A stretch of 28,209 nt of DNA from Thermoplasmatota archaeon. Its GTDB lineage: Archaea; Thermoplasmatota; E2; JACPAO01; JAHFTW01. Positions 1,703 through 19,562 of the stretch are shown in pieces. The position numbers and the translations under genes are program-made. How positions within the stretch are numbered: the stretch's first letter is position 1; each line of letters begins with the position of its first letter. The stretch lies in assembly GCA_041623015.1 (NCBI GenBank), contig JBFJXT010000001.1:1-28209 (forward strand), read 5' to 3'. The notes under the pieces were generated by a model. The model did no database searches and was not told the origin of the DNA. It saw nothing but the letters and a program-made list of their open reading frames with translations.

Positions 1703-2386
1703 GTGGAGGACCCCGTCCGCCTTGGGCTCAGCCTCGCCATGCTTCTTGGCGCCAGCATCAGTGACTTGCGCACCCGCCGCGTGCCCAACCCCTATTGGTG
1801 GCCTTGGCTGTTGGCCGCAGTGACCCTCATCATTGGGGATCTCGTAGCAAACCCCGCCGAGGCTTGGATCGGCTTGCTGTGGTCCCTTGGAACCGCAGGC
1901 CTCCTGTATGGGCTGTGGTATTTCCACATGTTTGGCGGCGCCGACGCAAAAGGGCTCATGGTGTTGGCGGCATTTTGGCCCACCACCCCGCAGATTCTAG
2001 ACGGCGCCACGACCCACACCCTCGATGCGCTGGTCAACGCCAGTGCCATGGTCGCCATTTTGCCCCTGATTTTCCTGATTTGGAATCTTGCCCGGGGCCA
2101 CATTGGAGGGCCGATGCTGCTGGGGGTTCGCATGCGCCTCGAGCACGCCAAGTCCCGCCATGTCTGGCCCATGGAGCGCGTGGTGGATGGCCAAGTGCGC
2201 GTCAAGCTCTGGCAAAAAATTGGTGTTCCCCAGGACCAAACGTACCGCGATTTGGAGCAAGCGGGGGTGGATCGCGTCTGGGCCACCCCCAAGATTCCGT
2301 TCATGCTCGGCATATTTGCCGGCTTGATTTTGGCAAGTCAGTACGGCAACCTCTTGCTCAAAATCATGACCCAATTGCTTGGTTAA
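1703..2386 (+). CDS. flaK: Class III signal (prepilin/preflagellin) peptidase, A24 family, FlaK/PibD-like, with archaeal C-terminal domain
   Basis: Multi-TM protein with both catalytic Asp motifs (SISDLRTRRVPN and FGGADAK) and a C-terminal VWATPKIPFM segment typical of archaeal A24 peptidases. It lies next to genes carrying class III signal peptides. Confidence 0.9.
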   Translation: MEDPVRLGLSLAMLLGASISDLRTRRVPNPYWWPWLLAAVTLIIGDLVANPAEAWIGLLWSLGTAGLLYGLWYFHMFGGADAKGLMVLAAFWPTTPQILDGATTHTLDALVNASAMVAILPLIFLIWNLARGHIGGPMLLGVRMRLEHAKSRHVWPMERVVDGQVRVKLWQKIGVPQDQTYRDLEQAGVDRVWATPKIPFMLGIFAGLILASQYGNLLLKIMTQLLG

Positions 2387-2520: not shown

Positions 2521-3150
2521 GTGTCATCGCGGCTCAGTACAGGCCTATCCGGCCTCGACGCCCAATTGGGAGGCGGCATCCCACCTGGCACAGTGCACGT
2601 CCTTCTAGCCGAGCCCATGAACGCACAGGAGTTGTTTGCATACCACTTTGCCGTTGGCGACACCGGGCAATCCAGGTGCAGATTCGTCACCACGGATCAA
2701 GAAGTGGAGGACATCACCAACGGCATCATTCGTGTCGGCGGCGACCCCAGCCGCAGTGATGTGCACAAATTACCCAAAGACGACTCCTGGGACCTACCCC
2801 CACCTGCCAAGGGGGCTCGGTATGTCCTTGATAGTTTCAGCTCCTACAGCGACGCGGTGGGCTGGGACGCTTCCTTTGAAGCTCTCAAGAAACTACGCGT
2901 CACGTTGCGTGAAACCGGCGAAGTGGGCCTCATTTCCGTCATGAACGGCATCCATGAGCCCCAGCAAATTGCCCGGCTCAAAATGTGGGCCGACGGTGTC
3001 CTAGAATTGGGCTTTGATCGCCAAGGCTTCGGATTGTACCCCTTCCTCAAGGTGACCAAGATGCGCGGCGTTGCGGATTCTGCCCGCTTCCTGCTGTTCA
3101 AAGACACCGCCAAGGGACTGTTCATGGAAAGCACCCGGAGGGTGTTCTAA
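2521..3150 (+). CDS. KaiC/RAD55-like RecA-superfamily protein with degenerate Walker A
   Basis: STGLSGLDAQLGGGIPPG N-terminus, Walker B YVLDS, and C-terminal ADGVLEL...LKVTKMRG. The P-loop position reads AEPMNAQE, with no GKT/S. Confidence 0.85.
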   Translation: MSSRLSTGLSGLDAQLGGGIPPGTVHVLLAEPMNAQELFAYHFAVGDTGQSRCRFVTTDQEVEDITNGIIRVGGDPSRSDVHKLPKDDSWDLPPPAKGARYVLDSFSSYSDAVGWDASFEALKKLRVTLRETGEVGLISVMNGIHEPQQIARLKMWADGVLELGFDRQGFGLYPFLKVTKMRGVADSARFLLFKDTAKGLFMESTRRVF

Positions 3151-4320
3151 GTGAACGTGCCCCGAGTGATGGCAATTCCAGCTCGGTGCGTCCGCGCCAT
3201 TCGAGCGTGGCGCCGAGACGATGCAGTCACCCCCGTGGTAGGCACCAGCATGATTCTGGTCATCACGGTGCTGGGCATGGCCGGCGTCTTGTTTTGGGGC
3301 ACACCAACCCTGCAAGGCATCCAAGACCGAGGCAGCATCATCGGCATGGAAGGTGAATTCGATGAGTTGCGCCGCGCCAGCCTTGAATTGTCCGTTCCTG
3401 ACGCCAGCCGTGTTCCCTCGGTGGTACTCGAAGACGGCAGCTTGGATTTGGAACAGGGCAGCCGCATGATGATTTCCATGTCCCGGGATGCTAGCAACAT
3501 CGACTGTGATCCCGAGCTCACCGGGTGGGAAACGGGCCCCAGCAACACCATCACCGCCACCCTCACCGATTGTCGCAACGGCGGCGACTTGCTCGGTCTT
3601 TGCGGCCTCGGTTGCCTGGAGATTCACAAAATCACCGGCAGCAGCACAATTGAGCAGACCAACATGGATTGGAGCCAGCCGGTCCCTGGCGTCCCCAATT
3701 ACGTGGCCACCTGGGACACCACTGGCACCGAGCCAGACTTCAGCGAAGACGACTGGGTGGTTCGGCTCACCAATGGCGGCACCACCGTGTATGCCTCCGC
3801 CTGGGTCATTGAGCAAAAACGCATCACATGGCGACTCAGCACCAGTGTCACCGATGTGCAACTTCACTTCGAAGGTGGCGCCATCTTTGAAGTGGACGCA
3901 GGCTCCTACTTCCTGCACCGCCAAGCCCCCATCCGCGAAGATGCCTTTGGCAGCGAAGACTACGTGCTTCGCCTCGTGACACTGCTTGGATCCGACAGCG
4001 GCAGTGCCGGACGAGGCACACCTGAAGTGTTTCTTGGATTGGTAGGCAATCATGTGCGCATCAGCACGTCCGCTGCGTACCAAGTCCGTTACACCATCGC
4101 AGGCGACATTGCCGAAGCGTGGTGTCAAAGTCTCTTGCTTCGAAATGCCGGCCTCACCGCCACCGCCACCACGGAACGGACCTACACCGTCGATGGCGAC
4201 TGTAGCGACGCAACCCCGAGCGTCCTGTACGAAGTGACAGATCCTAGCTCCGGCAGCATCCGCAAATCATTCCCCCTCGAGTTCCTTCATGTGCGCATTA
4301 CCAGTAGCATCCAAGTCTAA
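3151..4320 (+). CDS. Pilin-like protein with class III signal peptide (large minor pilin)
   Basis: RRDDA|VTPVVGTSMILVITVLGMAGVLFWG is followed by an amphipathic helix and a T/S/D-rich beta-type domain. The GTG directly abuts the previous stop; ATG 3169 is an alternative start. Confidence 0.8.
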   Translation: MNVPRVMAIPARCVRAIRAWRRDDAVTPVVGTSMILVITVLGMAGVLFWGTPTLQGIQDRGSIIGMEGEFDELRRASLELSVPDASRVPSVVLEDGSLDLEQGSRMMISMSRDASNIDCDPELTGWETGPSNTITATLTDCRNGGDLLGLCGLGCLEIHKITGSSTIEQTNMDWSQPVPGVPNYVATWDTTGTEPDFSEDDWVVRLTNGGTTVYASAWVIEQKRITWRLSTSVTDVQLHFEGGAIFEVDAGSYFLHRQAPIREDAFGSEDYVLRLVTLLGSDSGSAGRGTPEVFLGLVGNHVRISTSAAYQVRYTIAGDIAEAWCQSLLLRNAGLTATATTERTYTVDGDCSDATPSVLYEVTDPSSGSIRKSFPLEFLHVRITSSIQV

Positions 4321-4870
4321 TCGGACGCCCACGCCGACCGCTTCGCCCCCTGCGCGGCTCTTCCATCGCGCCTCCGATGCGGCGGTCAGCGAAGTGATTG
4401 GTCAAATTCTGATGTTTGGCATCCTCAGCATGGTCTTGATTCTGAGTCTGCTTGGATTCAATGCCGCCAAGCAAGGCGCCGAGGACCGCGTCGCCGAACT
4501 GGAGGCAGATTCCGCCGCACAACGTGTGGCCGGCGTCTACATCAGTGCCAGTTTGTTTTCTGAGCAAAATTCAGCAAATTCCCTTGACTACCAACGCCTC
4601 GTTGATTTGCCCGACCGCATTCAACAACGAGACTATACCATCAGCATCCAAAGTGAAAGCCTCACCTTGAGCATTCCAACCGCACAAGTGACCGTCACCA
4701 CATCTCTGCTTTCCGCAGGTGCAGCACCTGAACTGGTGGTCTGCAACCAAGCCAATTTCGCCGGCGGCCCCCTCTTGGTGCGGGCCCGCGATTACGTACC
4801 CGGGGACGAACTGTCCTTGTGCACCAATCGAACCACCGAATCCATCATCCTCTACCTGGAGTCCGCATGA
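4289..4870 (+). CDS. Pilin-like protein with class III signal peptide
   Basis: SDAA|VSEVIGQILMFGILSMVLILSLLGF is followed by the helix AEDRVAELEADSAAQRVA. The start is uncertain; ATG 4289 overlaps the upstream gene by 32 nt. Confidence 0.8.
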   Translation: MCALPVASKSNRTPTPTASPPARLFHRASDAAVSEVIGQILMFGILSMVLILSLLGFNAAKQGAEDRVAELEADSAAQRVAGVYISASLFSEQNSANSLDYQRLVDLPDRIQQRDYTISIQSESLTLSIPTAQVTVTTSLLSAGAAPELVVCNQANFAGGPLLVRARDYVPGDELSLCTNRTTESIILYLESA

Positions 4871-7299
4871 GCCCCGATACGCCCGAGCAACGCAAGGCAA
4901 AGGAAGCCGAAAAAGCCCGCAAAAAGCAGGCTGACATCAAACCTGAGGACAAGAAGCGCATCGATGCGTTGCTGTCCAAGAAGGACGGCGTCCACAGCGC
5001 ACCTCCGCCAGCCAAGCCGGTCGATTTGGAGGCGCTTCGCGGTCGAGCCATGTCTTCTCGGGGCCCATCCGGAGCTGATGCCCACCGAGCCCCCACCACG
5101 GGCGCACCGCCTCCGGCAGGACAGACCCCAAAGACCCCCGTGCGATCCGCGGGGCCTCGGGCAGAAGGCGCACAGAAGGCGCCAAGTCCAGTTCCGCCAC
5201 GCCCGCCTGGAACCGCTCCAACGCCAGGCCGCAAGCCCGCAACGCCTCCAAGTGGCGCACCTAAGCCCCCAACGGGCCCTGCGGCTCGAATGGCCACGGG
5301 CGCACCAAGCCCGCCTCCAGCCGCTTCCAAACCCCGTGCCCCCGAGCCAGCCACCGGCAAGAAAGACGCCGCAGCCGCCCCCGCCAAAGACGAAGCCTCC
5401 AAGTCTCCGGCACCCCCCGATGAGGGCCCGCCCGAGGACGAATCCGAAGGAGAAACCGAACGCGGAGAATACGGCACACGCAAGGCCAAAGTGGGCGAAA
5501 AAATCGAACGGGGCCTCAAATCCGTCGATACCGATGACGCCGAAAGTGTCATTCAAAAGCAACTGAAGGGAACCGCTCGGCCCGACGCCGTCAAGCTCCC
5601 TCAATTCCCGGCGCCCGCCAGTGAGCGCCCAAAGGCGCTGGATTTGGAAGAAGTTCGCCGCCAGGAAATTGCTGAGAAGGAAGAGCAACGCCGTGCCGAG
5701 CTTCTAGAGGATCTCGACGAAGAGACGCGCCGGAAATTGGAGAAGGACTGGGCCGTCGAAGATGGCCTCGATTACCGACCCGACCCCGACGACATCGAAG
5801 TGGAAGTCTACCCAATCCAAGAGCCGTTCTCGTACGTGCAAATTGTTCGCAACACCCGCACCCACGAGATGATTTACCACGCCATCGAGCCCCGCCTCAG
5901 CCGAGACGAGCAATTCCTGCTCAAGTTCATCGAGGAAACCCTCGTGGATGTGCTGGACCTTCAGCCCGGAGAACTTGAGAAGAAGGAACTGGACGAATAC
6001 ATCCGGGGCAAGTTCGACGAAGTGCTGTTTGACTACAGCATTAGCCTCGGAGACGAGGAGTCTGAAGCAGAAGAAAGCCGTGAGCGCCTCCTGTATTACG
6101 TGCTACGTGACTTCATTGGCGAAGGCCCCCTGAACATCCTCATCAATGACGAAATGATTGAGGATATCTCCTGCGACGGCCCCCACGTGCCGATTTTCGT
6201 GTACCACCGCAAGTACGAGGCGTTGACCACGACCATCCGCTACAGTGGCCACGAAACCCTCGATTCCTTCGTGATTCGCCTTGCCCAGCGCGCCGGAAAG
6301 CACGTGAGCATTGCCGAGCCGATTCTGGATGCAACCATGCGCGACGGCAGCCGCCTTCAAGCCACCTTGGCAAAGGAAGTGAGCTCATTCGGGTCCACGT
6401 TTACCATTCGTAAGTTCCGCGAAGTGCCGTTTACGCCCATTGATTTGGTGCGGTTTGGCACCATGTCCTCCTCCATGCTCGCCTACCTCTGGATGGTCAT
6501 CGAGCACCACATGAGCGCCATGTACGCCGGCGGTACAGCCAGTGGTAAGACCACGGCCATCAACGCCATCATGATGTTCATTCCGCCGCAAAACAAGGTT
6601 GTCACCATCGAAGACACCCGCGAGTTGCGCGTGCCTCAGCCCAACTGGATTGCCGGTATCACCCGCGACGGTTTTGGTCCCCGTGACGCCCACGGCCGCC
6701 AAGCGGGTGAAATCGACATGTTCCAGTTGCTCAAGAACGCCTTGCGTCAACGCCCCGATTACATCATTGTGGGTGAAGTGCGTGGTGCGGAAGCGTACAA
6801 CTTGTTCCAGGCGATGGCCACCGGGCACGCCGCATACGGCACCATGCACGCAGACAGTGTGGACGCGGTCATTCACCGTTTGGAATCGGATCCCATCAAC
6901 ATTCCCCGCTCCCTGTTGGAGGCGCTGGATGTGGTGGCGGTGCAGATTCAGACCCGTGTGGCCGAAAAGCGCGTACGCCGCACCAAGCAAATCACCGAGA
7001 TTGTGGGTCTTGATCCCAATACCCGTGAAATTCTCACCAACGAAGTATTCCACTGGGACCCGGAGACGGACTCGTTCATCTACAGTGGCATCAGCTACGT
7101 CTTGGAGCGCATCGCCGTAGAAACCGGCAAGTCACCCAAGGAAGTGGCACAGGAACTGGAAAACCGTGTGCGCGTCATCAACCACATGATGGATGCAGAC
7201 CTGCGCGATTACCACAAGATTGCGTCCATCTTGACGAACTACTTCAAGGTCAAAGAAGACGTGATGAAAATCGTCGATGAAGGTGGCTCATGGGACTAA
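4867..7299 (+). CDS. pilB: Type II/IV secretion system ATPase (archaeal PilB/FlaI/VirB11-like) with long Pro/Ala/Lys-rich N-terminal extension
   Basis: Walker A GGTASGKTT, Asp box TIEDTREL, Walker B PDYIIVGEVRG and His box TMHADS. ATG 4867 forms an ATGA overlap with the upstream stop, so it is preferred to the track's start at 4819. Confidence 0.95.
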   Translation: MSPDTPEQRKAKEAEKARKKQADIKPEDKKRIDALLSKKDGVHSAPPPAKPVDLEALRGRAMSSRGPSGADAHRAPTTGAPPPAGQTPKTPVRSAGPRAEGAQKAPSPVPPRPPGTAPTPGRKPATPPSGAPKPPTGPAARMATGAPSPPPAASKPRAPEPATGKKDAAAAPAKDEASKSPAPPDEGPPEDESEGETERGEYGTRKAKVGEKIERGLKSVDTDDAESVIQKQLKGTARPDAVKLPQFPAPASERPKALDLEEVRRQEIAEKEEQRRAELLEDLDEETRRKLEKDWAVEDGLDYRPDPDDIEVEVYPIQEPFSYVQIVRNTRTHEMIYHAIEPRLSRDEQFLLKFIEETLVDVLDLQPGELEKKELDEYIRGKFDEVLFDYSISLGDEESEAEESRERLLYYVLRDFIGEGPLNILINDEMIEDISCDGPHVPIFVYHRKYEALTTTIRYSGHETLDSFVIRLAQRAGKHVSIAEPILDATMRDGSRLQATLAKEVSSFGSTFTIRKFREVPFTPIDLVRFGTMSSSMLAYLWMVIEHHMSAMYAGGTASGKTTAINAIMMFIPPQNKVVTIEDTRELRVPQPNWIAGITRDGFGPRDAHGRQAGEIDMFQLLKNALRQRPDYIIVGEVRGAEAYNLFQAMATGHAAYGTMHADSVDAVIHRLESDPINIPRSLLEALDVVAVQIQTRVAEKRVRRTKQITEIVGLDPNTREILTNEVFHWDPETDSFIYSGISYVLERIAVETGKSPKEVAQELENRVRVINHMMDADLRDYHKIASILTNYFKVKEDVMKIVDEGGSWD

Positions 7300-8159
7300 C
7301 CAGCACCCAACGGTTTGCCTACAAGGTGTTCGGAATCCGAGCGGCCAGCGCCAAGAGTTTGCCCAAACTCAAGGAGGCAATCCGCAAGGCCCAGATGCCG
7401 GTTCGCGCCGAAGCCTACCTCTCCCAGAGCATTCTGTATGGACTGGGCACCGCCGCCGTGATGTTCGTGCTAACACTGTTGTTCGTGCCGGTGTTGACAG
7501 CAGTGCTTGGCTTGAGCCCCGCGTTGTGGATGCTGGTGATTGTGGTGCCTCCCATGGCTGGCTTCATCGCTTACACCGCTTTGATGAGCACGCCCGCAAG
7601 CAACGCCAAGAAACGCGGCAAGAACATCAACACCAAGCTGCCCTACGCCACCAATTACATCGCTGCCATGGCGTCGGCGGGTGTGATTCCGGCTGAAATT
7701 TTCAAGAGCCTAGCCAACCAGGACATCTACGGCGAAGTGGCCCGTGAAGCTGCGATGATGTACAAGGACATGCACGTGCATGGCAAGGACATTGTGACGA
7801 GTTTGCGCCGCGCCATGGATCGCACGCCGAGCATCAAGTTCCAAGAATTGCTGCAAGGCGCCATCACCACCGTCACCAGTGGCGGTGACTTGACCGCCTA
7901 CTTCCACCAGAAGGCAACGCGGTACCAATGGGAGAATCGCGTGGAGCAAAAGAGCTTCATCGAAACCATGGGCCTCATGGCGGAAACTTACGTGACCGCT
8001 GCCGTTGCCGGACCTCTGTTCCTGTTGGTGATGGTGGCCATCATCGTCTTGATGGGCAGCGGCACAATGAGTCAACTCCAGTTGCTAGTCTACCTGTTGT
8101 TGCCAGTCATCAACATCGGATTCATGTTTGGCATCAAGAGCATGATTCCGGAGGTGTAA
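7290..8159 (+). CDS. pilC: Type II secretion system F-family (TadC/PilC/FlaJ-like) membrane platform protein
   Basis: Two N-terminal TMs, cytoplasmic LPYATNYIAAMASAG...YGEVAREA...RTPSIKFQELLQGAITTVTSGGDL, and C-terminal TMs. It overlaps the ATPase stop. Confidence 0.9.
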   Translation: MGLTSTQRFAYKVFGIRAASAKSLPKLKEAIRKAQMPVRAEAYLSQSILYGLGTAAVMFVLTLLFVPVLTAVLGLSPALWMLVIVVPPMAGFIAYTALMSTPASNAKKRGKNINTKLPYATNYIAAMASAGVIPAEIFKSLANQDIYGEVAREAAMMYKDMHVHGKDIVTSLRRAMDRTPSIKFQELLQGAITTVTSGGDLTAYFHQKATRYQWENRVEQKSFIETMGLMAETYVTAAVAGPLFLLVMVAIIVLMGSGTMSQLQLLVYLLLPVINIGFMFGIKSMIPEV

Positions 8160-8160
8160 C

Positions 8161-10503
8161 GTGGCTGCCCCAGAGACTCCCAAGGACCGAAAGGACGCGT
8201 CAACCGCAGACAACACGGACGCGCCGCCATTGGACCCGGCCCTGGAAGATTTGCCTGAAGGTGCCATCATCGATGATATCCACGAGCACGATGCCCCCGA
8301 GGCCCCTCGGAGCATTGCTGCAGATGACGAACCGATGCCAGAAAGCGCCGTGGTCGAAGAGATCTCAACAGAACCCCTTGCGGCCGCCTTGGAATCTGCG
8401 GATTCCGATGATGAAAAGAAGCCCCGATTTGCCTTGAGTCAAGACCGTGAAGCCGCTCGCCACGGAAGCGTCAGTGCGGACCTGGAAAACCCCGAGGAAA
8501 TCGAAGAGGCACCCGCAGCCGCAGCCCCAGAACGGGCACGCCTGACGCGCAAGCAAAAAAAGGACCTGGCCAAGAAAGGCGAAGGCGCTGGCCTCGTTCA
8601 CAGCAGCCAACTGGATGAACGCCTGCGCCACGGAGACGCAGAAGCAACTCCTCGCGACCGAGCCCTCAAAATTGTGTTCGACTCGGTCACCGTCACCGGC
8701 CTACTTATTCTCGTTGCGGTCATCGGTGGCGCTGCCGGATTCATTGGGTTCCTATCCAAAGTCTCCGCGCAAGTCTACACCCTCGCATTCGTTGCCACCT
8801 TACTGGCAGGCAACAGCATCCTGTTCAATTTCATTCGCTGGCGCGCCCTTCGCGGACACCAAGGCATCCATGTTCTAGAGAAATGGAAAGCCGATCTCCA
8901 GTTGACCGTCGCAAGCATCATTGCACTTTTCACGGTCATTTTCATCGCGTTCATCGAAGTGAGCGCCCTACTGGCCTTCCTCGGCGTCATCAATGTGGGC
9001 ACCGCCGGCAGCGCCCTTGCTCGCAATTTTGTCCTGTTTCAAGTCATCATCCTCCTGGTCTACGTCCTGACCTTGGTGGTGCGTGAAAACAACGTCACCA
9101 GTTACCAGCCCCACCGAAATTTGGTCATCGCCAGTTGGGTACTCACCGGGGTCGCGGCGTTCGCAGCACTGTTTGGTGTCTTGCTCACCGCCGGCGCCCC
9201 GCAAAGCCTTGGCATTCTCTCCACCATCACCCGAGGCCAAGGCATCTACATCGTCACCCTCGGTGTTGGCCTAGAGTTCATCGCTGTGCGCATTCGATTG
9301 CGCCTGCCGTCCGTGATTAGCCTGTTCCGGGCAGCCGTGGACGTGAGCATGCGCGCCAACGAAGAGATGCGGGTGCAACTGCAAAAACGCGCCCAACGCA
9401 CATACCTTGCCTCATTTGCCTTCGTTGCACTGAGCATGGCCTTTGCGGGCGCCATCGCCACGGGCAACCTTGGCGTCGGCAGCGGCAGCGCCACGCTCGC
9501 CCTCGTGATTTTCTACGTGGGCACCGCCATCATTCTGCTTGGCCTCATCACCGTGCGCATCTTCCAAGGACGCAATTTGGAGCGGCGCACTGTCAAAGAC
9601 GAAGGCGACTTGGAGTCCCTCGTTGGCCAAAAGCGCAAGGCCCCCGCAGAAATTTTCCGACTCGGTGTGTTTGGCGTTACGGGACTCATAGCGGCCATGT
9701 TTGTCTTGCTGGCCGTCATGATTGGCACCGATCGGTTGCCGATTTTCGAGAAAAAATACGCCACCGATTTCTTCATCGTCGCCATCTTGTTTGGCGCTGG
9801 CCCCTACGGCTTCTACTTCAATGCGGAACGCAAACGCATGTCAGCCATCGATGAGAAATTCCCAGATTTCCTTCGAGACATCGCCGAATCAGCCCGTGCC
9901 GGAATGACCCTTCCCCGCGCCCTGGTGACCGCAGCCAGTGGAAACTATGGGGCCCTTACGAAGGACATCCAACACATGGCTGCCCAAGTGGAATGGGGGG
10001 TGGAGTTTGCAGAAGCCTTGGAGCGGTTTGCAGAACGAGCCAATACGCCCCTCATCGACCGAACCGTGAGCCTCGTGGTGGAGGCCCAGCGCGCCGGTGG
10101 TAACGTGGTGGATATTCTCACTGCTGCCTCCGATGATGCTCGAGAAATCAAGCAAATCGTGAGCGAACGAGACGAGCAGATGCAGATGTACAGCGTCGTG
10201 GTGTACATCGCCTACTTCGTGTTCATCGCCGTGGTGTTGATTTTGTCGGCGCAGTTTATTCCCGCATTCAAGGAAGCCGTCGGCGCCGCCAGTGGCCAAC
10301 AAGTGGGAGGATTGAATTTCAAGGACTTTGACCCCGAAGAGTTCAACACCCTGTTTTTCCACGCCGCGTTGGTTCAAGCCATCGGCGGTGGATTGGTAGG
10401 CGGAGTCCTCACGAAAGGCCACCCAGTGGCTGGATTCAGCAACATCGTCATCATGGTCATTGCGGCCTGGTTCAGCTTCCGCGTGCTGATTGGAGTGATG
10501 TAA
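8161..10503 (+). CDS. Second T2SSF/TadC-like platform protein fused to an acidic N-terminal tail and an additional multi-TM domain
   Basis: The C-terminal ~280 aa contain IDEKFPDFLRDIAESARAGMTLPRAL...YGALTKDI...GVEFAEALERFA...AGGNVVDIL. About 150 aa of acidic low-complexity sequence and about 8 extra hydrophobic helices come before it. Confidence 0.9.
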   Translation: MAAPETPKDRKDASTADNTDAPPLDPALEDLPEGAIIDDIHEHDAPEAPRSIAADDEPMPESAVVEEISTEPLAAALESADSDDEKKPRFALSQDREAARHGSVSADLENPEEIEEAPAAAAPERARLTRKQKKDLAKKGEGAGLVHSSQLDERLRHGDAEATPRDRALKIVFDSVTVTGLLILVAVIGGAAGFIGFLSKVSAQVYTLAFVATLLAGNSILFNFIRWRALRGHQGIHVLEKWKADLQLTVASIIALFTVIFIAFIEVSALLAFLGVINVGTAGSALARNFVLFQVIILLVYVLTLVVRENNVTSYQPHRNLVIASWVLTGVAAFAALFGVLLTAGAPQSLGILSTITRGQGIYIVTLGVGLEFIAVRIRLRLPSVISLFRAAVDVSMRANEEMRVQLQKRAQRTYLASFAFVALSMAFAGAIATGNLGVGSGSATLALVIFYVGTAIILLGLITVRIFQGRNLERRTVKDEGDLESLVGQKRKAPAEIFRLGVFGVTGLIAAMFVLLAVMIGTDRLPIFEKKYATDFFIVAILFGAGPYGFYFNAERKRMSAIDEKFPDFLRDIAESARAGMTLPRALVTAASGNYGALTKDIQHMAAQVEWGVEFAEALERFAERANTPLIDRTVSLVVEAQRAGGNVVDILTAASDDAREIKQIVSERDEQMQMYSVVVYIAYFVFIAVVLILSAQFIPAFKEAVGAASGQQVGGLNFKDFDPEEFNTLFFHAALVQAIGGGLVGGVLTKGHPVAGFSNIVIMVIAAWFSFRVLIGVM

Positions 10504-11333
10504 TGGGCGTGATCCAACACCTCCCGTTTATCCGGCACCTTGCCCCCGGGAAATCCGAACAGCCGCGCCGAATCGCTGACGACGAGAGTGGCGCCTTACC
10601 GGTGTTTGAAGCAATCATCGCAGGGATGATGATCCTCACCGCGATTCTGTTTCTCACCGCCATTGGGCGCCCGGCGCCGGCAACAGGACAGGGCGGCATT
10701 GATCTAGGGCAAAACGCCGCAGACACCTTGTCAATTCTTCGAGACCGAGACGCGGACGCGCCACTCACATACCCTGACCGCCTTACGGAGGTGGTCGAGC
10801 TTGCAATGACGGGCGATACGGCTGACGCGAAGGAATTCTTAGACGAAATCGTCCCCATCGGCACTCGCTACTTGCTCAGATTAGACAATGGCGTAGAACC
10901 GCTAATTCTCCTCCCCCATGGCAGTGGCCCAGAGCTCAACCCCCGCGCCGCCCAAGCGGCCAGTGTCCTCGTCATCCCCGATTGGGTGGACAATGGATTG
11001 CCATCAACCGTCCTGCCCACAAGTGCCCTTTCGCCTGCAGATGTGATTCCCAATGGACACGCAGCCGATTCGGTCAATGCAGGAGGCACAGCACACCTGT
11101 TTGCTCCCAATGGCGCCGAAGTGATGCCCGATGGAACCCCGTGGCTCACCTATTGGTTATCCGCTGAGTACGTGGGCACCGTTCCACCCAATGTTCCCTA
11201 CGGCGTCTGGAAGGCGTGCCCCGAGCCGTGTCTTGCTGGCTCCGAGACCCTATTCAAGATTTACACAACCGATCGAACCGAGGCAGCCTACCCCATGTAT
11301 GGCGTGCAGTTGGTGGTGTGGCTTGCGGCGTAA
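10503..11333 (+). CDS. Pilin-like protein with class III signal peptide
   Basis: DDESG|ALPVFEAIIAGMMILTAILFLTAI, with a C-terminal beta-strand YGVQLVVW. The start has a TAATG overlap with the upstream stop. Confidence 0.8.
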   Translation: MGVIQHLPFIRHLAPGKSEQPRRIADDESGALPVFEAIIAGMMILTAILFLTAIGRPAPATGQGGIDLGQNAADTLSILRDRDADAPLTYPDRLTEVVELAMTGDTADAKEFLDEIVPIGTRYLLRLDNGVEPLILLPHGSGPELNPRAAQAASVLVIPDWVDNGLPSTVLPTSALSPADVIPNGHAADSVNAGGTAHLFAPNGAEVMPDGTPWLTYWLSAEYVGTVPPNVPYGVWKACPEPCLAGSETLFKIYTTDRTEAAYPMYGVQLVVWLAA

Positions 11334-11367
11334 CCCTGCAACCGGAAGCACCGGCAATGGCAAACGA

Positions 11368-11838
11368 ATGGCCTGCGACCGTGGCCAGATGCTCCTGCTT
11401 ACCAGTGTCATCCTCCTGATTGGTTTCATCGCGCTCAGCAGCATGGTGATTCGCGTCACGCAACTTCCAGAAGAAACCACCCAGGAAAGCCGCGACCCCA
11501 TTGAATTGGAAGCGGACGCAGTGTCCGAAGGCGTCGGAGATTTGTTGGCGCGCATGCACACCCAAGTTCCCATTGACCCGGTGCTTGGAGCCGCCGATTA
11601 CAGCACCGCTGTAGAAGAGAGCCTCAATACCCTCGTCCATTTGGAAAAGGGTCGCGGGTTCCGGTTCGAATGGATCCCTAACGGCATCGGGGATGCGGTG
11701 ACGTGCACGGCAGGTCTCAATCCCGGTGAAGTGGTCGTGACGGTGACCGTGGTGCTCCAAGATTTGGACACACGCATCCAATTGTCCATCTCCGAGACGT
11801 TTGGCGACGGCGTGGATCCTTTGGTGTGCACCCCGTAA
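11368..11838 (+). CDS. Small pilin-like protein with class III signal peptide (156 aa)
   Basis: ATG 11368 gives MACDRG|QMLLLTSVILLIGFIALSSMVI, a classic RG|Q site plus hydrophobic helix. The track's start at 11131 overlaps the previous gene. Confidence 0.8.
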   Translation: MACDRGQMLLLTSVILLIGFIALSSMVIRVTQLPEETTQESRDPIELEADAVSEGVGDLLARMHTQVPIDPVLGAADYSTAVEESLNTLVHLEKGRGFRFEWIPNGIGDAVTCTAGLNPGEVVVTVTVVLQDLDTRIQLSISETFGDGVDPLVCTP

Positions 11839-12036: not shown

Positions 12037-12558
12037 ATGTTGAAAATACTACGAGTAATGATATGGTCAATGATTTTGATTCCAATGGGCGCGTCTGTGG
12101 CAAGCGCTGAGCCATCGGTCTACATTGTCCCTGACAAAGAAACCCGTGAACACATTGACACAGTGGCTAGCTTCGCCATTCGGCAAGGCCAAGAAGGCGT
12201 AGCCATCCTTTATGGCGCCATTGATACCGCGCAAAACGGCTCCCAAATGGTGTACGTCATGGGCTCGGACACTGCATGGAATGCCACAACATTCATCCTT
12301 GATCATTACCCCCTCATCAAAGAAATGGTCTTCCAAGATGAAGACAACAGCGTGACAGAAGCCGCCGACTGGACCGTCTCGCTGTTCCCAGATCGACCCA
12401 ATTGCATCAATCCCTTCATTACGTCCCTTCAAATTGACGCAATTCCCCCCCTCGCAATCGAGTATAACTCGCCCTGCTACGAGCCCTACTGGGACAAAGT
12501 TGGCTTCGATCCAATCATGATTGTTTGGATCATCATCATCGACCTCCTCAACGGCTGA
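12037..12558 (+). CDS. Small secreted protein with one Cys-loop (module 1, gene A); function unknown
   Basis: Signal peptide ending VASA|E. Exactly two Cys (C123, C147), in C-INP...PPLAIEYNSP-C-YEPYWD. The C-terminus is hydrophobic. Confidence 0.75.
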   Translation: MLKILRVMIWSMILIPMGASVASAEPSVYIVPDKETREHIDTVASFAIRQGQEGVAILYGAIDTAQNGSQMVYVMGSDTAWNATTFILDHYPLIKEMVFQDEDNSVTEAADWTVSLFPDRPNCINPFITSLQIDAIPPLAIEYNSPCYEPYWDKVGFDPIMIVWIIIIDLLNG

Positions 12559-14276: not shown

Positions 14277-16400
14277 GTGGATCGCGAAGCCGTTACAGCA
14301 CCTATCGCGATGACCATCGCGTTTTCTATTTTCCTCGTTGCATTTGGCGCTGTTGCGCTCAAATCCAGTGACGTAGCCAATGGCAACGCAAGCAATGAAG
14401 CAGACTCCGCTTTCCTGCGTGCCAAAGCTGGAAACTTGCTTGATGTTATGCTTCGAAGCCCCGGATACAGCCAGGGAGGCCTTGATTGGATTAGCCCCGA
14501 AGGGCAATCTGGGCGCGAAGATCAAATCACACGCCTGGGGCTTTCAGACGCCGCTGGAAAATTTCTTTCCTTCGAGAAATTTGAAAATCTTCGCCTAGCA
14601 CCTTACGAAGATGACGGCACCGGAGACGGATTCGTCAATTACGCCGACGCCCGAGCCGCCCTGGGTTTAGATCAAGAAAACCTCGGATTCCACATCCGGG
14701 CCAAACCAAGCCTCAAATCGGTCCAAGAAATTTTGGAAAATGGAGAACGGGACCCGAACCTCAAGGTCACATACCTTGGTGATTCGACCGGCGACAGTGA
14801 CGATCCGACGTTGACTCCGCCTTCTGCCACGGCACCCACGTGCATTGTCAACGCCGGCAATAGTCTGTACACGATTTCAACCACGGTGGATAATACGGGC
14901 ACCCAGCCAACACAGCTCAGTGCGTTCATCACCGTTGACCCCATCAAAGGCAGCACGCGCACCGAATGGGCCCATGGGCCAGTTCTCGCCGCAGGGGCCA
15001 CCACGACATTGAGCACCGTAGTCCCAGTGAATACGGACTATTGCGACGCAGGCGCCACGATCACGGTTGATATCTGGGACTCTGCCCAGCGGTGGACCAC
15101 CGCAACCACGACGCTTGGCTCTGCGGCGGGCGGCACCAATCAAACCCGAGATCTTCTCGTGGATGCAAGCAAAAACCACTACACCGAGGGCGCCACCGTA
15201 GTAGTTGCTTACGATGGTGCTGGGCTGAAAAATACGGACGCTTTGACGTTCAACCTCATCAATGCCGGTACGATGGCCGTTGAATCGGGTCCGCACGCAT
15301 TTACCGCCGGCAACAACAACCTTCGATCGATTCAGATTGGCGATGTCACGGCAGGTACGCGCTCATTTGACTATGGCGGCCCGGTCCCTGCCGGCGCGTA
15401 CATTGCTGAGCTCTCCGATGGCACGAACACGGTTTCGGAAAATATCTACATCTTCTCTCCAGGCTCCGAGCCGGGAAATTTTGTCGCCAGCGGCGCATCC
15501 GGGACCACGTCCTTGTCCGCTGCGGCGATTACTGAATTGACATTTCTTCATGACTTGGTGGAGCGGTTCTGCCCCTTCGAGTACAATGATTCGGGCACCA
15601 AATTGGTTCCTGACCGAACGGGAGATCCAAGCCCAACCCATGCGGAGCGCTGTTCGTTTAATCCGCGCTTCCAAGATGGGGACGTGATTCCTGACCAAAA
15701 GGACATCATGAATGACGAATTGCCCCTTCGCCTCCTGGACGTGAATGGGGATGCGGATTTCACCTACGTTTCCATGCTCGTGGTGGGCAGCAACGTGGAC
15801 CACCAAGTGATGACCTCTGCGGCAGCCAAGCACGCGGTGCGCGATTGGGTGCTTGGAGGTGGAACACTTGTGGTGTTTGGATCCAGTGAACAAACCGTTC
15901 AGTGGCTTCAGCCGATTTTCCATTCTGGCATTCAAAGCAGCAGCGGCGGCGTCGCCACCCCTGATGCGGACCACCCCTTGTTGGTGGTGAGCGATACCCT
16001 CGATTATGATGGTTACAGCAGCCATGGCCGCGCCTGGGACCTCAAGGAAAGCGGCGGCAGCTCCAGTGCGGACAAATTCACGGATGTGGTCAAGGACGGC
16101 GCGGGAGATGCCATCCTGACCATCAGTAACCCTGGCGCCTATGGAAAAGGGACCGTCATCTTGTCCACTTGGATGCCTTATGATTTGTTTGGTGATGGTA
16201 ACCACCCTGGTCAAGAGGGTGCCAAGTTCACCAATAACATCTTGATGCAAGGGTACCGTGGCTTGTTCCTAGACTACGGTCCCAGGATCCCCGAGGGTCA
16301 AATGGCAATTCCTGCTTCGGGCAAGGCGCAGGTGTATCATCCAGAGCTTGAGAAGCTGGTGAGCCTGGACATTACTCTGTTTGTCTTCGTACAAGCCTAA
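14277..16400 (+). CDS. Large pilin-like surface protein (class III signal) with Ig/CARDB-like inserts and GATase-1-like domain; paralog 1 of 3
   Basis: MDREA|VTAPIAMTIAFSIFLVAFG. It shares motifs with the two downstream genes (RLGL...Y..A..ALG...GFHIR; LVVGS; DWVLGGGTLVVFGSS..QWLQP; FLDYGP). The T/G-rich beta insert includes YTISTTVDNTGTQ...LAAGATTTLS. Confidence 0.8.
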   Translation: MDREAVTAPIAMTIAFSIFLVAFGAVALKSSDVANGNASNEADSAFLRAKAGNLLDVMLRSPGYSQGGLDWISPEGQSGREDQITRLGLSDAAGKFLSFEKFENLRLAPYEDDGTGDGFVNYADARAALGLDQENLGFHIRAKPSLKSVQEILENGERDPNLKVTYLGDSTGDSDDPTLTPPSATAPTCIVNAGNSLYTISTTVDNTGTQPTQLSAFITVDPIKGSTRTEWAHGPVLAAGATTTLSTVVPVNTDYCDAGATITVDIWDSAQRWTTATTTLGSAAGGTNQTRDLLVDASKNHYTEGATVVVAYDGAGLKNTDALTFNLINAGTMAVESGPHAFTAGNNNLRSIQIGDVTAGTRSFDYGGPVPAGAYIAELSDGTNTVSENIYIFSPGSEPGNFVASGASGTTSLSAAAITELTFLHDLVERFCPFEYNDSGTKLVPDRTGDPSPTHAERCSFNPRFQDGDVIPDQKDIMNDELPLRLLDVNGDADFTYVSMLVVGSNVDHQVMTSAAAKHAVRDWVLGGGTLVVFGSSEQTVQWLQPIFHSGIQSSSGGVATPDADHPLLVVSDTLDYDGYSSHGRAWDLKESGGSSSADKFTDVVKDGAGDAILTISNPGAYGKGTVILSTWMPYDLFGDGNHPGQEGAKFTNNILMQGYRGLFLDYGPRIPEGQMAIPASGKAQVYHPELEKLVSLDITLFVFVQA

Positions 16401-16599
16401 TCTCCGAGACTCATTCAGATCCTGGCAGCTAGGACTCCGGACCAGGCGTGCAGACGCCCATTGTGGCGTCTGACCGGCCCCGTTTGGGCCGTGCGCCCAT
16501 TTGCCATCAAGGTTTTATGGGACAAAATCGCGCAAGATGAGTATATAGTTCCTTTGGCACGTGGGTTTATCTTGGGTAGACAAAGCCTGCCACAAGACC

Positions 16600-18006
16600 A
16601 TGCTCAAGCGAGGTAAGGAAACGGACGCCGTCACCCAAGTGGTGTCATTCATCGTGGCCGGTGCATTCTTCCTGGGCATCCTCGGCGCCTTGCTCATCGC
16701 AACCAGCGACTCTTCGGAAGCGGACGGCACCCAAATTCAAGACACGCAAAATCGCCTTGACGCGGAGCACCTTGCGGATTTACTTGCAGGAAGCACCGGC
16801 ATCGGCTGGGCTGGCGGTGCTGACTCGGTCACACGCATTGGTTTGCTTCACGACGACGGAGACCGGCTCGATAACAACCGATTGTCCGCCCTTCGAGGAG
16901 CCGTATACGATGCGGACCCGAACAACGGCAAAATCGACTACGAAGAAGCGCTCGACAGCATGGGCATCCCCAATGACGGCAGTGTTGGATTCCATCTCCG
17001 CATGACCCCCGTGGGCCTGCAAAAGCAACTTCTGGCCGCAGATTTGAGCCACATCCAAACTGCATACATTGGCGACTGGCCAAACGTCGCCCTCGACTAC
17101 ACCGTCCCCTTGGGCACGGACTTGGACATGCTGACCGACGTGCGCGCTCAGATCGATGTGCAAATCGATATTCTAACTGGGCAAGAGCGCCAAATCATCG
17201 ACAACCTAGGCCTTGGCTTTGACGATATGATTGACCTCAACAACATCAACATCGATGTGGACTTGGGCCTCGGCGTCACCGTTCCGATTCAAACCGTCCT
17301 CGGCGATCTTGGGTTGCTGGACGGGGACGTCTACCTAGATCAAAAGCAATACTTGGACAGCACCCTCAACTCGGTGCTTCCAGGATACGACCTACTGATT
17401 GTAGGCAGCTCCGTGGATCAATCCAGTCTCACCAGCGCCATCGTCAAGCAACCCATCTCTGACTGGGTCGTCGCTGGCGGCACCCTCATGGTGATGGGTA
17501 GCTCTGCACAGAACTTCCAGTGGCTTGAGCCCCTGTTTAGTGTCGGCACCACCACCGTCAACTCAGCCCCCGCCGCTCCCGACGTCAGCCACCCCATCCT
17601 GCACGAGCCCCATGAGTTGGATTGGCCAAGCTACGACAACTTTGGCCTTGCCTGGGACCTCAAGGACCAAGGCGCCATGGCGAGCTTTGACAAATTCCAA
17701 CACATCATCACCTCAGACGGAGAAGATATTCTGGCGGTCAGCAACGAAGGCGCTTTCGGAGACGGACGGATTTTCCTCACCAGCTTCCGGCCCGAAAACA
17801 TAGCCGACACCATGGACGCTATAGAAGCCGGCAATTTCCTCAACAACCTCGTGCTCTACAGCGACCGCGCGCACCTGTACCTCGACTACGGCCCGACGCC
17901 GCCCGATGGTGCTGCAGTGAGCGCTGCCGTGCGCACCAGTCAAATCCTCGACCCGGATCTCGGCATGGTCAACATACGTATGACCGTGCTCTACTGGGGC
18001 GTTTAA
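16600..18006 (+). CDS. Pilin-like surface protein (class III signal) with GATase-1-like domain; paralog 2 of 3
   Basis: ATG 16600 gives MLKRGKETDA|VTQVVSFIVAGAFFLGILGALLI. TTTATC at 16566-16571 lies about 29 nt upstream, favouring this start over GTG 16561. Confidence 0.8.
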   Translation: MLKRGKETDAVTQVVSFIVAGAFFLGILGALLIATSDSSEADGTQIQDTQNRLDAEHLADLLAGSTGIGWAGGADSVTRIGLLHDDGDRLDNNRLSALRGAVYDADPNNGKIDYEEALDSMGIPNDGSVGFHLRMTPVGLQKQLLAADLSHIQTAYIGDWPNVALDYTVPLGTDLDMLTDVRAQIDVQIDILTGQERQIIDNLGLGFDDMIDLNNINIDVDLGLGVTVPIQTVLGDLGLLDGDVYLDQKQYLDSTLNSVLPGYDLLIVGSSVDQSSLTSAIVKQPISDWVVAGGTLMVMGSSAQNFQWLEPLFSVGTTTVNSAPAAPDVSHPILHEPHELDWPSYDNFGLAWDLKDQGAMASFDKFQHIITSDGEDILAVSNEGAFGDGRIFLTSFRPENIADTMDAIEAGNFLNNLVLYSDRAHLYLDYGPTPPDGAAVSAAVRTSQILDPDLGMVNIRMTVLYWGV

Positions 18007-18131
18007 CCCCTTCACCCCGGACGGTTCTCCTCCCTTCGCGTCGGGAATCAAGTAGGAAATACGAATTCTCTTCCTCATATACTCCTTTTTAGGGGCGGAC
18101 TTAAGCGGACGAGACAGATGATGAAGGTTCC

Positions 18132-19562
18132 ATGCGACGCTTGCGTATGGACCACGAGGCCGTAAGCCAAACGGTGGCCTTCGTGGTGGGCTTGTCCCTT
18201 TTCATGGGATTCCTTGTCACCCTCATCATCAGCAGCGCCGACAGCCCAGACTCCAGCGCAAGCATCATCCAAGACACCCAAAACCGCCTCGACGCCGAGC
18301 GCATCGCAGATATGCTCGCAAGCAGCCCCGGCATCGGCTGGGAGACAGGCGCCGACAACATCAATCGCTTGGGCCTCGTCGATCGTGAGACCAATCAACT
18401 CAACGCCGAAAACATGGACAAACTTCGGGGAGCAAAATACGAGTCCGATCCATTCAACGGCAAAGTGGACTACGAAGAGGCCCTCGAAAGTCTTGGCTTA
18501 CCTACAGACGACCGCCTCGGCATCCATATCCGAATTACGCCTGTTGGACTTCATAATCAACTCGCATTCTCCAGTCTTAGCCATGTGAAAACGTCTTACA
18601 TCGCAGACTGGGAAAACACGCCGCGGGACTTTGTGGTCACCTTCGCAAGCGACCAAGCCATGGTGGATGACGCCAGGGCCCAAATTCAAGCCACCATTGG
18701 CGCTGGAACCCAGAGCGAACGAGACACCATCGTTAGCCTCGATACGGGATTTGACAATCGAGTCAACCTTTGGGGATTCACCATCCTTGCAGAAAATCTC
18801 GCCACAGGCGATCAGCAACCTCTCCAAGATGCCCTCACGGACAAAAGCCTGATGCGAGGCGACATCTACATTGACGACAGTCAATACCTCTCATTCAACC
18901 AGGACTCCGGCAACGGCCTCTTTGAGGATTCTCTGCCCATCTATGATTTGCTCATCATTGGCAGCACGGTCCAACACTCCAGCCTCACCAGCAACAACGT
19001 CAAGCATCCCATCGCGGATTGGACCCTCGCCGGAGGCACACTCCTCGTGCTTGGCAGCGAGAGCCAAAACTTCCAATGGCTTCAGCCGCTTTTTAGCGTG
19101 GGCACCACCACCGTCAATGCGGCTCCCTCAGCTCCCGATGTGAGCCACCCGATGCTCCATGAGCCCTACGAATTAGACTGGACTAGTTACGACAACTTTG
19201 GCCTTGGCTGGAATCTCAAGAAGAGCGGAGCCCAAGCCAGCTATGAAAAATTCCAACACATCATCACTTCAGAAGATAAAGACATCTTAGCCGTGAGCAA
19301 CGAAGGCGCCTTCGGAGACGGCCGCGTCTTTCTGACCGCATTCAGGCCCGAGGATATTTTCATCCAGCAAAGCCCAGACGAAGCCTACAATTTCCTGCGA
19401 AACATCGCCCTATTTGACGATCGATCCCAACTCTACCTCGACTACGGACCCACGCCACCAGAGGGTGCCGCGGTGAGTGCTGCAATTCGAACGACGCACT
19501 TGCCCGACCCCGACCTCGGCATGGTCAATGTGCGCATCACCGTGCTTTACTGGGGTGTGTGA
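18132..19562 (+). CDS. Pilin-like surface protein (class III signal) with GATase-1-like domain; paralog 3 of 3
   Basis: MRRLRMDHEA|VSQTVAFVVGLSLFMGFLVTLII. The last 206 aa are 150/206 identical (hand count, ungapped) to paralog 2. Confidence 0.8.
   Translation: MRRLRMDHEAVSQTVAFVVGLSLFMGFLVTLIISSADSPDSSASIIQDTQNRLDAERIADMLASSPGIGWETGADNINRLGLVDRETNQLNAENMDKLRGAKYESDPFNGKVDYEEALESLGLPTDDRLGIHIRITPVGLHNQLAFSSLSHVKTSYIADWENTPRDFVVTFASDQAMVDDARAQIQATIGAGTQSERDTIVSLDTGFDNRVNLWGFTILAENLATGDQQPLQDALTDKSLMRGDIYIDDSQYLSFNQDSGNGLFEDSLPIYDLLIIGSTVQHSSLTSNNVKHPIADWTLAGGTLLVLGSESQNFQWLQPLFSVGTTTVNAAPSAPDVSHPMLHEPYELDWTSYDNFGLGWNLKKSGAQASYEKFQHIITSEDKDILAVSNEGAFGDGRVFLTAFRPEDIFIQQSPDEAYNFLRNIALFDDRSQLYLDYGPTPPEGAAVSAAIRTTHLPDPDLGMVNVRITVLYWGV

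Follow-up and report, generated by a model that had tools for sequence, protein, structure and literature searches.

The pilus locus and the three genes at its end

The window, that is, the whole stretch of 28,209 nucleotides that was analysed, carries a conserved Thermoplasmatota type IV pilus locus with three paralogous genes at its end, and all the features described here are on the forward strand. The locus contains genes for a prepilin peptidase of the PibD/FlaK type (1703..2386), a KaiC/ArlH-like ATPase (2521..3150), a DUF7289-like pilin scoring at the cut-off (3151..4320), a DUF7266 pilin with a weak Pilin_N match that is a candidate major pilin (4289..4870), an assembly ATPase with T2SSE and PilB3_C domains (4819..7299; 27.7 bits against Pfam PilB3_C), two TadC/PilC platform proteins (7290..10503, with the genes at 7290-8159 and 8161-10503), a pilin with an invariant Glu+5 that is weakly DUF7262/DUF7288-like (10503..11333), and a pilin with Gln+1 that is weakly DUF7261-like (11368..11838). 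Across the family the order peptidase-ATPase-pilins-PilB-TadC-TadC-pilin-pilin-L-S-TyrRS is kept, where L and S are the long and short classes of the paralogs; the long and short pair is conserved family-wide, full tandems of both are found in 12 loci, and arrays of two or three paralogs recur in the phylum. Judged by the PilB3_C domain and the gene content, the adjacent pilus is probably euryarchaeal-type and clade 2 / system 2-like.

The three genes are real paralogs. Paralog 1 (14277..16400, 707 aa) is a modular minor pilin of the long class, while paralog 2 (16600..18006, 468 aa from ATG) and paralog 3 (18132..19562, 476 aa) are of the short class; the open reading frame of paralog 2 was called as 16561-18006 (481 aa) but an ortholog favours the start at 16600. 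The class III signal of archaeal type IV pilins has a charged residue at -2, G, A, or S at -1, and a hydrophobic stretch (PMC4371748). All three paralogs have such a signal, EA/VT, DA/VT, and EA/VS, respectively, followed by about 20 hydrophobic residues, as the first-pass annotation had it, and these resemble the DA/VS signal of H. volcanii PilA1. Across the family A or G is at -1 in 67 of 75 short and 68 of 82 long proteins, and the charge at -2 is not always present. In the structural models the long N-terminal helix a1 spans residues 2-31 and 37-59 in paralog 3 and 7-31 and 38-60 in paralog 1. Glu+5 is absent from these modular minor pilins, as it is from GspK. As expected of archaeal type IV pilins, genes for a peptidase, an ATPase, and platform proteins accompany the paralogs. 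It is quite improbable that the paralogs evolved from pilins into membrane-anchored surface proteins that stay outside the filament. This would fit the upstream gap of 125-200 bp with a TATA-like word at each gene, the two unrelated genes between the operon and the paralogs in this genus, and the stand-alone position of some relatives, but in most loci the paralogs directly follow the pilins of the operon, A/G at -1 is conserved, and a complex model described below places paralog 3 among the operon pilins. A sigma-70 promoter scan of the region, with a model ill-suited to archaea, gave results at chance level.

A GATase-like domain predicted to be nested in a split pilin head

In the AlphaFold models, with pLDDT of 94.5 and 88.6, the domains are nested: a class I glutamine-amidotransferase-like (GATase-like) domain without the catalytic Cys interrupts a DUF7287-like pilin head. 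In paralog 1 the signal, helix a1, and the N-half of the head (14277..14714) are completed by a C-terminal beta-hairpin (16266..16397), and the GATase-like domain, itself discontinuous, is predicted between them (residues about 160-663, 14754..16265). In paralog 3 the corresponding parts are at 18147..18548, 19428..19559, and 18579..19427. What had been annotated as a shared C-terminal domain is mostly the GATase-like domain inserted into the pilin; the identity reported there between paralogs 2 and 3 is exactly 150/206. Pfam DUF7287 is a plain pilin of 157 positions to which the paralogs add 280-500 aa of cargo, and they miss its cut-off. The pilin halves resemble DUF7287 (Atlas 0.94; E 9e-5 for one relative), but the 27-bit cut-off was not reached, with no match in this genome, 23.5 bits for the best relative, and a single match at E 0.26 when the DUF7287 HMM was run on five relatives. 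From sequence, therefore, the pilin part may be called DUF7287-like only. The structure-search lists contained no solved pilins, but these lists were filled by the GATase-like domain and are uninformative on the head.

The GATase-like domain has the a/b/a fold of the GATase1 class with Z scores of 13.3-14.9, rmsd 3.0, and 181-203 aligned residues; the matches are 3rht for paralog 1 (Z 14.9, rmsd 3.0, 194 aligned) and 2gk3 (Z 13.5) and 3rht (Z 13.3, rmsd 3.0, 181 aligned) for paralog 3. Other structural neighbours are the GATase1-like CBM87 of Agd3 (6nwz, Z 10.0 and 11.4), IFT52-N (Z 10.2-11.3), and OST48 (Z 10.7-12.1), and an Atlas fold search returned GATase-like domains only, at TM 0.34-0.36 by query. 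With the non-catalytic members of this fold (3RHT, STM3548 (2GK3), ThuA-like, DUF4350, CBM87 of Agd3, IFT52-N, and OST48) the paralogs share the fold at Z 10-15 and likewise the lack of the catalytic Cys, at an identity of 10-20%. We know of no such domain that is part of a pilin. Sequence searches gave less: Pfam and NCBIfam searches of the three proteins found DUF4350 only, below threshold (20.2 and 16.7 bits against a cut-off of 30.4 bits), with zero matches in NCBIfam; DUF4350 matches at E 0.01 or better in 30 of 75 family members; and a PDB sequence search with the short-class profile gave one chance-level match (E 0.37).

An active amidotransferase or protease of the Cys type was rejected, as there is no Cys in the GATase-like core: paralogs 2 and 3 have none at all and the four Cys of paralog 1 are all located in its insert. 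At the nucleophile elbow, as placed by motif comparison, paralog 3 has a Gly (19053-19055), and this Gly303 is invariant across the short class. We give little credence to a filament-borne enzyme or a bindosome-like module for capturing solutes that uses a chemistry other than a Cys nucleophile. Polar residues at strand ends are kept in both classes (Glu191/420, Asp239/469, Asp243/473, Ser273/505, Ser304/536, Asp331/563, and His334/566 in paralogs 3/1) as such a module might require, but the missing Cys and the Gly at the elbow argue against it, and the paralogs have no linked genes for transporters or catabolism. Conserved Trp/Tyr are also present in the family.

The inserts and their history

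It had been proposed that the three proteins differ by a swappable insert at one site, of 297 aa in paralog 1 (14784-15674) and of 80 and 81 aa in paralogs 2 (17080-17319) and 3 (18612-18854). The sizes are correct, and the anchor that precedes the insert reads TAYIGD/TSYIAD in paralogs 2 and 3 as described, but it is a strand of the GATase-like domain and does not mark the boundary of a pilin N-terminal domain. Since the two flanking anchors correspond to strands b1 and b2 of this domain, the insert is in fact two loops around the core helix a1, and not one site. In paralog 1 this helix, with the conserved Glu420, is at 15519..15557; in paralog 3 it is at 18702-18737, between loop A (18606-18701) and loop B (18741-18857), and its Glu is kept in 95-98% of both classes. 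The paralog 1 stretch has 15% Thr and 9% Gly, and in the model its b1-a1 loop holds both of two Ig-like domains, one at 14811..15131 (residues 179-284; 7cwd, Z 10.4), in which a Cys189-Cys256 disulfide is likely, and the other at 15147..15461 (residues 291-395; 3bp5, Z 9.9). The Ig-like part of the earlier description is thus borne out by the model whereas CARDB is matched weakly only (E 0.022; 15.4 bits against a cut-off of 22.7). The inserts of paralogs 2 and 3, considered largely dissimilar before, are 29/81 (36%) identical with one gap; their alignment score is 111 against -5 +/- 9 for shuffled sequences, 0 of 2000 shuffles reached it, and on this alignment they are homologous.

The histories of inserts and scaffolds are coupled. 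In the scaffold tree 82 short proteins are set apart from 118 long and other proteins with support of 0.998 and 1.0, and no short scaffold in it carries an Ig insert. The inserts are 65-71% identical to their orthologs in the sister species but 36% identical between paralogs 2 and 3, and the informative insert sites favour the ortholog pairs 28 to 10 to 8. Insert identity drops steadily as scaffold identity drops. The idea that paralogs 2 and 3 exchanged inserts was rejected. dN is below dS in every insert, with dN/dS of about 0.08-0.3 and dS near saturation; on these values the inserts appear to be under purifying selection, and positive selection was rejected. Paralogs 2 and 3 arose when the short gene was duplicated locally. 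An assembly duplication was rejected as the copies share 56% identity and each has an ortholog in the sister species.

It is therefore improbable that the proteins are tip adhesins that can replace one another and that change specificity by swapping inserts among paralogs or strains. The loops are indeed the fastest-evolving part, at 2-3 times the rate of the C-terminal core, tandem arrays recur, an identical run of 68 bp in the short-gene pair of the sister species hints at conversion in the scaffold, and one protein from elsewhere in the family, P0114, looks like a candidate mosaic, with pilin halves 65-77% and 63-71% like L018 and an Ig block that is 17-33% like L018 and 30-48% like P0152. 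However, each insert class keeps to its scaffold clade, the insert and scaffold trees of 75 short proteins show no strong conflict, the insert stretch includes a core helix, no repeats flank the inserts, no recombination sites or silent cassettes surround them, and there is no recombinase among the 20 ORFs of the window that were scanned. Gene conversion is not shown for the scaffold of the window's own genes; their longest identical runs are 17-20 bp, and codon bias could account for the excess of third-position matches within the genome. Of the earlier idea of an exposed variable module, the exposure is supported, as the modelled loops lie away from the pilin-pilin interface and evolve faster, while the swapping is not. 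The observations named beforehand as speaking against that idea were inserts that are conserved across relatives, which was found, and buried, which was found for the central helix only. By sequence, long and short are best seen as two ancient ortholog classes with fixed inserts and not as cassettes swapped among three copies. In Neisseria, pilE/pilS variation puts a variable exposed part on a constant pilin. The shufflon PilV adhesins of IncI plasmids do the same (PMC9045228). Unlike both, this locus shows no recombinase in the scanned ORFs and neither repeats nor silent cassettes, and every paralog is a complete gene whose insert is vertically inherited.

Over deep time the family does vary, with pilin-only, GATase-only (P0160 and P0133), Ig, PKD, jelly-roll, and Fn3 versions. 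Pilin-only versions, in which the N-half joins the DYG hairpin directly, occupy the slot of the long gene in three family members and show that some lineages can dispense with the cargo. A wider reading, which we hold tentatively and lean against as a whole, is that nested pilins across Thermoplasmatota use the disarmed GATase-like domain as a plug-in hub at the tip, with Ig, PKD, MAM/reelin-like, and Fn3 modules inserted in three separate loops or added at the C-terminus, that paralog arrays provide alternative tips for different ligands, and that cargo blocks occasionally recombine between paralogs.

Proposed place in the filament and role

In a complex model paralog 3 docks on three operon pilins, mainly on that with Glu+5, through its split head only, with a score of 0.67 against 0.01 for the best of 3 controls. 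The mark for this score, whose calibration is rough here, is reached by 58/80 solved complexes and 2/110 mismatched pairs. Contact agreement between runs was at least 67%, pLDDT of the partners was at least 78, and confident contacts were confined to residues 35-134 and 447-461. The model covers paralog 3 alone, it may have passed because it resembles solved pilin complexes, and it does not establish a tip position. The first-pass view that these are pilin-like proteins from a pilus locus, with a probable place at the tip, is supported.

In GspK of type II secretion and ComZ of the Thermus thermophilus T4aP, domains are likewise inserted into the pilin sheet; these too are minor pilins proposed to be at the tip with other minor pilins (PMC8179133). 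They differ from the proteins here in that their cargo is an alpha-domain or a beta-solenoid and not a GATase-like a/b/a domain with second-level inserts, and here two or three paralog classes coexist in an archaeon. Streptococcus sanguinis PilB (vWA) and PilC (lectin) are modular pilins with demonstrated adhesion (PMC8179133, PMC9934059) and, as here, have a large functional module on a small pilin module and number two per system; their modules are appended C-terminally, whereas here the module splits the pilin and adhesion is inferred. Available parts of the accounts of euryarchaeal clade 2 / system 2 pili describe a PilB4-like locus with its own pilin set, sharing with this locus the ATPase, two TadC genes, a KaiC-like ATPase, and several dedicated pilins, and they mention large adhesin-like proteins but not GATase-like cargo (PMC4858521, PMC13705601). 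By bulk and precedent, the best reading is that the paralogs are GspK/ComZ-like tip minor pilins that display binding modules.

CBM87 of Agd3, which has 3RHT and 4JQS as its nearest structures as is the case here, binds polysaccharide via an exposed aromatic cleft (PMC7229062). Such precedent makes glycan binding by the paralogs a guess, because elsewhere the GATase-like fold is a pure scaffold. In IFT52 and OST48 this fold serves a docking role. It is rather unlikely that the domain is an adaptor of this kind, binding no outside ligand itself and instead docking a distinct secreted adhesin, a protein of the envelope, or a member of the other paralog class. Having IFT52-N and OST48 as neighbours, being the best conserved part of the protein, as would fit a fixed partner, and the fact that long and short genes usually travel together all agree with an adaptor, but the loci showed no conserved gene for a secreted partner and either class can be lost or cut to a bare pilin.

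Based on these findings, we propose as the probable explanation that the paralogs are modular minor pilins of the adjacent pilus whose split head packs with the operon pilins and whose Cys-less GATase-like platform faces outward with inherited, class-specific modules. PibD would cleave the short leader, and the hydrophobic a1 helix and the split head, N-half plus C-terminal hairpin, would pack with the small pilins of the operon, as modelled for paralog 3, most likely in a tip or initiation complex like GspI/J/K. The GATase-like domain in the pilin sheet would serve as a display platform and would probably bind glycans or surfaces. Its loops would bear two Ig-like domains in the long class and a small subdomain in the short class; the faster drift of the exposed loops of paralogs 2 and 3 may tune binding, and modules would be gained or lost across evolutionary time and not switched between copies.

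A literature search of incomplete coverage found no description combining archaea, type IV pili, a minor pilin, and a glutamine amidotransferase. To our knowledge, few tip complexes or adhesins have been described for archaeal type IV pili, no role has been assigned to PilB4-like pili, and the lineage of the host is apparently uncultured, which limits direct tests. A new mechanism of diversification is not demonstrated here. What the locus offers is a candidate for a GspK-like capping subunit in archaeal type IV pili, together with a modelled set of partners. The natural series from bare pilin to pilin with the GATase-like domain and on to added Ig, PKD, jelly-roll, or Fn3 modules would allow tests of how a pilin takes on cargo, and the GATase-like fold would gain a new use.

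The tandem genes and their pilus locus

The three open reading frames reported by the first-pass annotation were found on the window sequence: paralog 1 (14277-16400, 707 aa, long class), paralog 2 (16561/16600-18006) and paralog 3 (18132-19562), the last two being of the short class. The start of paralog 2 is most likely 16600, judging from agreement with its ortholog. The earlier counts were also reproduced: paralogs 2 and 3 have 150 identical positions across their 206 C-terminal residues, and 297, 80, and 81 residues lie between the anchors TxY(I/L)(G/A)D and (D/R)GD(V/I) in paralogs 1, 2, and 3.

The paralogs are linked to an archaeal type IV pilus locus that lies upstream and is complete, comprising a prepilin peptidase, a KaiC/ArlH-like ATPase, a DUF7289-like pilin, a DUF7266 pilin, an assembly ATPase, a pair of TadC genes, and two further pilins. 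In gene content the locus is similar to the PilB4-like type of clade 2 pili, for which a dedicated set of pilins is described (PMC4858521). The conserved order is peptidase, ATPase, pilins, PilB, TadC, TadC, pilin, pilin, long gene, short gene, TyrRS, and TruA, and the full long-short tandem occurs in 12 loci. A search with one protein as query found the family in 29 of the 31 other genomes of the host's family and in all four of a sister family; a profile search found it in 39 of 401 sampled genomes of the phylum. No member was found in the 108 genomes of the class's largest family. All named relatives are Thermoplasmatota.

Several other features of these loci were observed. Between the operon and paralog 1 is a two-gene module (12037-12558 and 12574-14085; 173 and 503 aa, secreted or single-pass) that looks like an insertion because, among the loci compared, only that of the sister species (L001) has it (45-49% identical); it is absent even from the same-genus locus L055, which has no long gene and one short gene directly after the operon. 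Weak paralogs of the 503-aa gene lie on contigs C6, C37, C123, and C164, and a 202-aa secreted-looking protein (26542-27150) has paralogs on C181 (two copies) and C6. The second TadC gene (8161-10503) encodes 780 aa, with an extended acidic N-terminal region and numerous additional predicted membrane helices ahead of its T2SSF domain; some relatives have a far shorter version. At least two additional pilus loci with ATPase and TadC genes are found on contigs C5, C285, C28, C29, C52, and C102 of this genome, together with several Pilin_N genes that stand alone, some of them in open frames of 560-660 aa. In relatives, the short gene L041:8958-10517 has a frameshift or sequencing error near profile position 401, and three FG-GAP/PKD proteins in tandem, each 906-920 aa long (L003:14373-21380), lie close to the locus.

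A GATase-like domain within a pilin

Mean pLDDT was 94.5 for the model of paralog 3 (residues numbered from position 18147) and 88.6 for that of paralog 1. Residues ~147-427 and 162-663, respectively, matched class I glutamine-amidotransferase-like (GATase-like) structures, 3RHT (Z 13.3 and 14.9, rmsd 3.0) and 2GK3 (Z 13.5 and 14.8). The TxYIxD anchor is strand b1, where the match starts, and the GD(V/I) anchor runs into strand b2. Between them sits core helix a1, with a Glu conserved in 95% of short and 98% of long proteins, and the insert is therefore loop A, helix, and loop B. Loop A of paralog 1 accommodates two sandwiches of Ig-like fold (residues 179-285 and 291-395, Z ~10). The catalytic Cys is lost, and a cysteine-enzyme role was rejected because Cys is absent from paralogs 2 and 3 and all four Cys of paralog 1 lie in the loops.

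This GATase-like domain has in turn been inserted into the pilin. In three family members the long-gene slot holds a pilin-only protein of ~200 residues (L057:8050-8709, L058:11648-12418, and L056:7472-8140) whose N-half passes straight into the DYG/FG hairpin, with no GATase-like domain. DUF7287 clusters were among the closest Atlas neighbours, at 0.94, of both the paralog 3 N-half and one pilin-only relative, and the DUF7287 HMM matched one relative at E 9e-5, under the cut-off. We are highly confident of this nested architecture.

Besides bare pilins, the family includes minimal pilin plus GATase forms (P0160 and P0133) and long scaffolds without the Ig pair (P0149 and P0182). PKD pairs occur in loop B of P0151 and at the C-terminus of P0010 and P0182, a reelin-B/MAM-like jelly-roll occupies a third loop, following b2 (P0146, P0132, L078, and L079), and there are Fn3 tails of up to 1866 residues. 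In another class, the operon slot is filled by arrays of two or three mixed-class paralogs. Hence, the idea of swappable modules holds across the family over a long timescale but not for the copies in the window.

Inheritance of the inserts

The inserts of paralogs 2 and 3, described at first as largely dissimilar, are 36% identical with one gap (score 111 versus -5 ± 9 in 2000 shuffles), compared to 49% in the N-terminal and 70% in the C-terminal region. A tree of 200 scaffolds with inserts removed separated a short clade (n = 82) from a long/other clade (n = 118) with support of 0.998 and 1.0. Inserts in the short clade are 65-126 aa, mostly ~82, and no short scaffold in this tree carries an Ig insert. 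Genomes belonging to another class also carry a recognisable tandem Ig insert, which is therefore old.

The inserts are vertically inherited. The sister species carries all three genes, and ortholog identity of the inserts is 71%, 65%, and 61%; in a four-way comparison of the short insert, informative sites favor orthologs by 28 versus 10 and 8. Insert identity drops steadily with scaffold identity. The inserts change at 2-3 times the rate of the C-terminal core, yet dN (0.21-0.35) is below dS (1.2-2.8, near saturation), which indicates purifying selection. No strong conflict between insert and scaffold trees was seen in the short class; four in the long class were traced to P0114 and P0154. 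Compared with L018:1504-3642 and P0152, P0114 is a candidate mosaic, with pilin halves from one paralog lineage and the Ig block from another, although it could be a chimeric assembly. No repeats flanking the inserts were found. On this evidence, the window copies are two classes of orthologs and one local duplicate; duplication of the short gene was seen in two other genomes as well. The three genes do not form a cassette-swapping system. Separately, in the sister species the two short genes (L001:8477-9880 and 10001-11419) match without a difference over 68 bp, and at 90% across 150 bp, in the GATase-like core, possibly by gene conversion.

Modelled packing with operon pilins and proposed role

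Paralog 3 modelled with three operon pilins scored 0.67, whereas the best of three controls scored 0.01; of solved complexes, 58 of 80 pass the mark used, and of mismatched pairs, 2 of 110, figures that apply only roughly here. Runs shared at least 67% of contacts, with partner pLDDT of at least 78. Confident contacts fell solely at residues 35-134 and 447-461, both halves of the split head, and none involved the GATase-like domain or loops. This predicted packing supports a split pilin with its cargo left free, but the score may stem from likeness to solved pilin complexes and is no evidence of a tip location. That the three proteins belong to the filament is, in our judgment, quite probable.

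The leader would be cleaved by PibD, since its motifs match those in PMC4371748. By analogy to GspK and ComZ, modular minor pilins with a proposed tip location (PMC8179133), and given their bulk, the proteins may sit at the tip. A binding function is suggested by CBM87, a GATase1-like domain of Agd3 that binds polysaccharide (PMC7229062), and by the adhesin-typical modules recruited. The whole account, binding included, we favor with some reserve. These proteins are a real variant of modular minor pilins, and one that is apparently undescribed.
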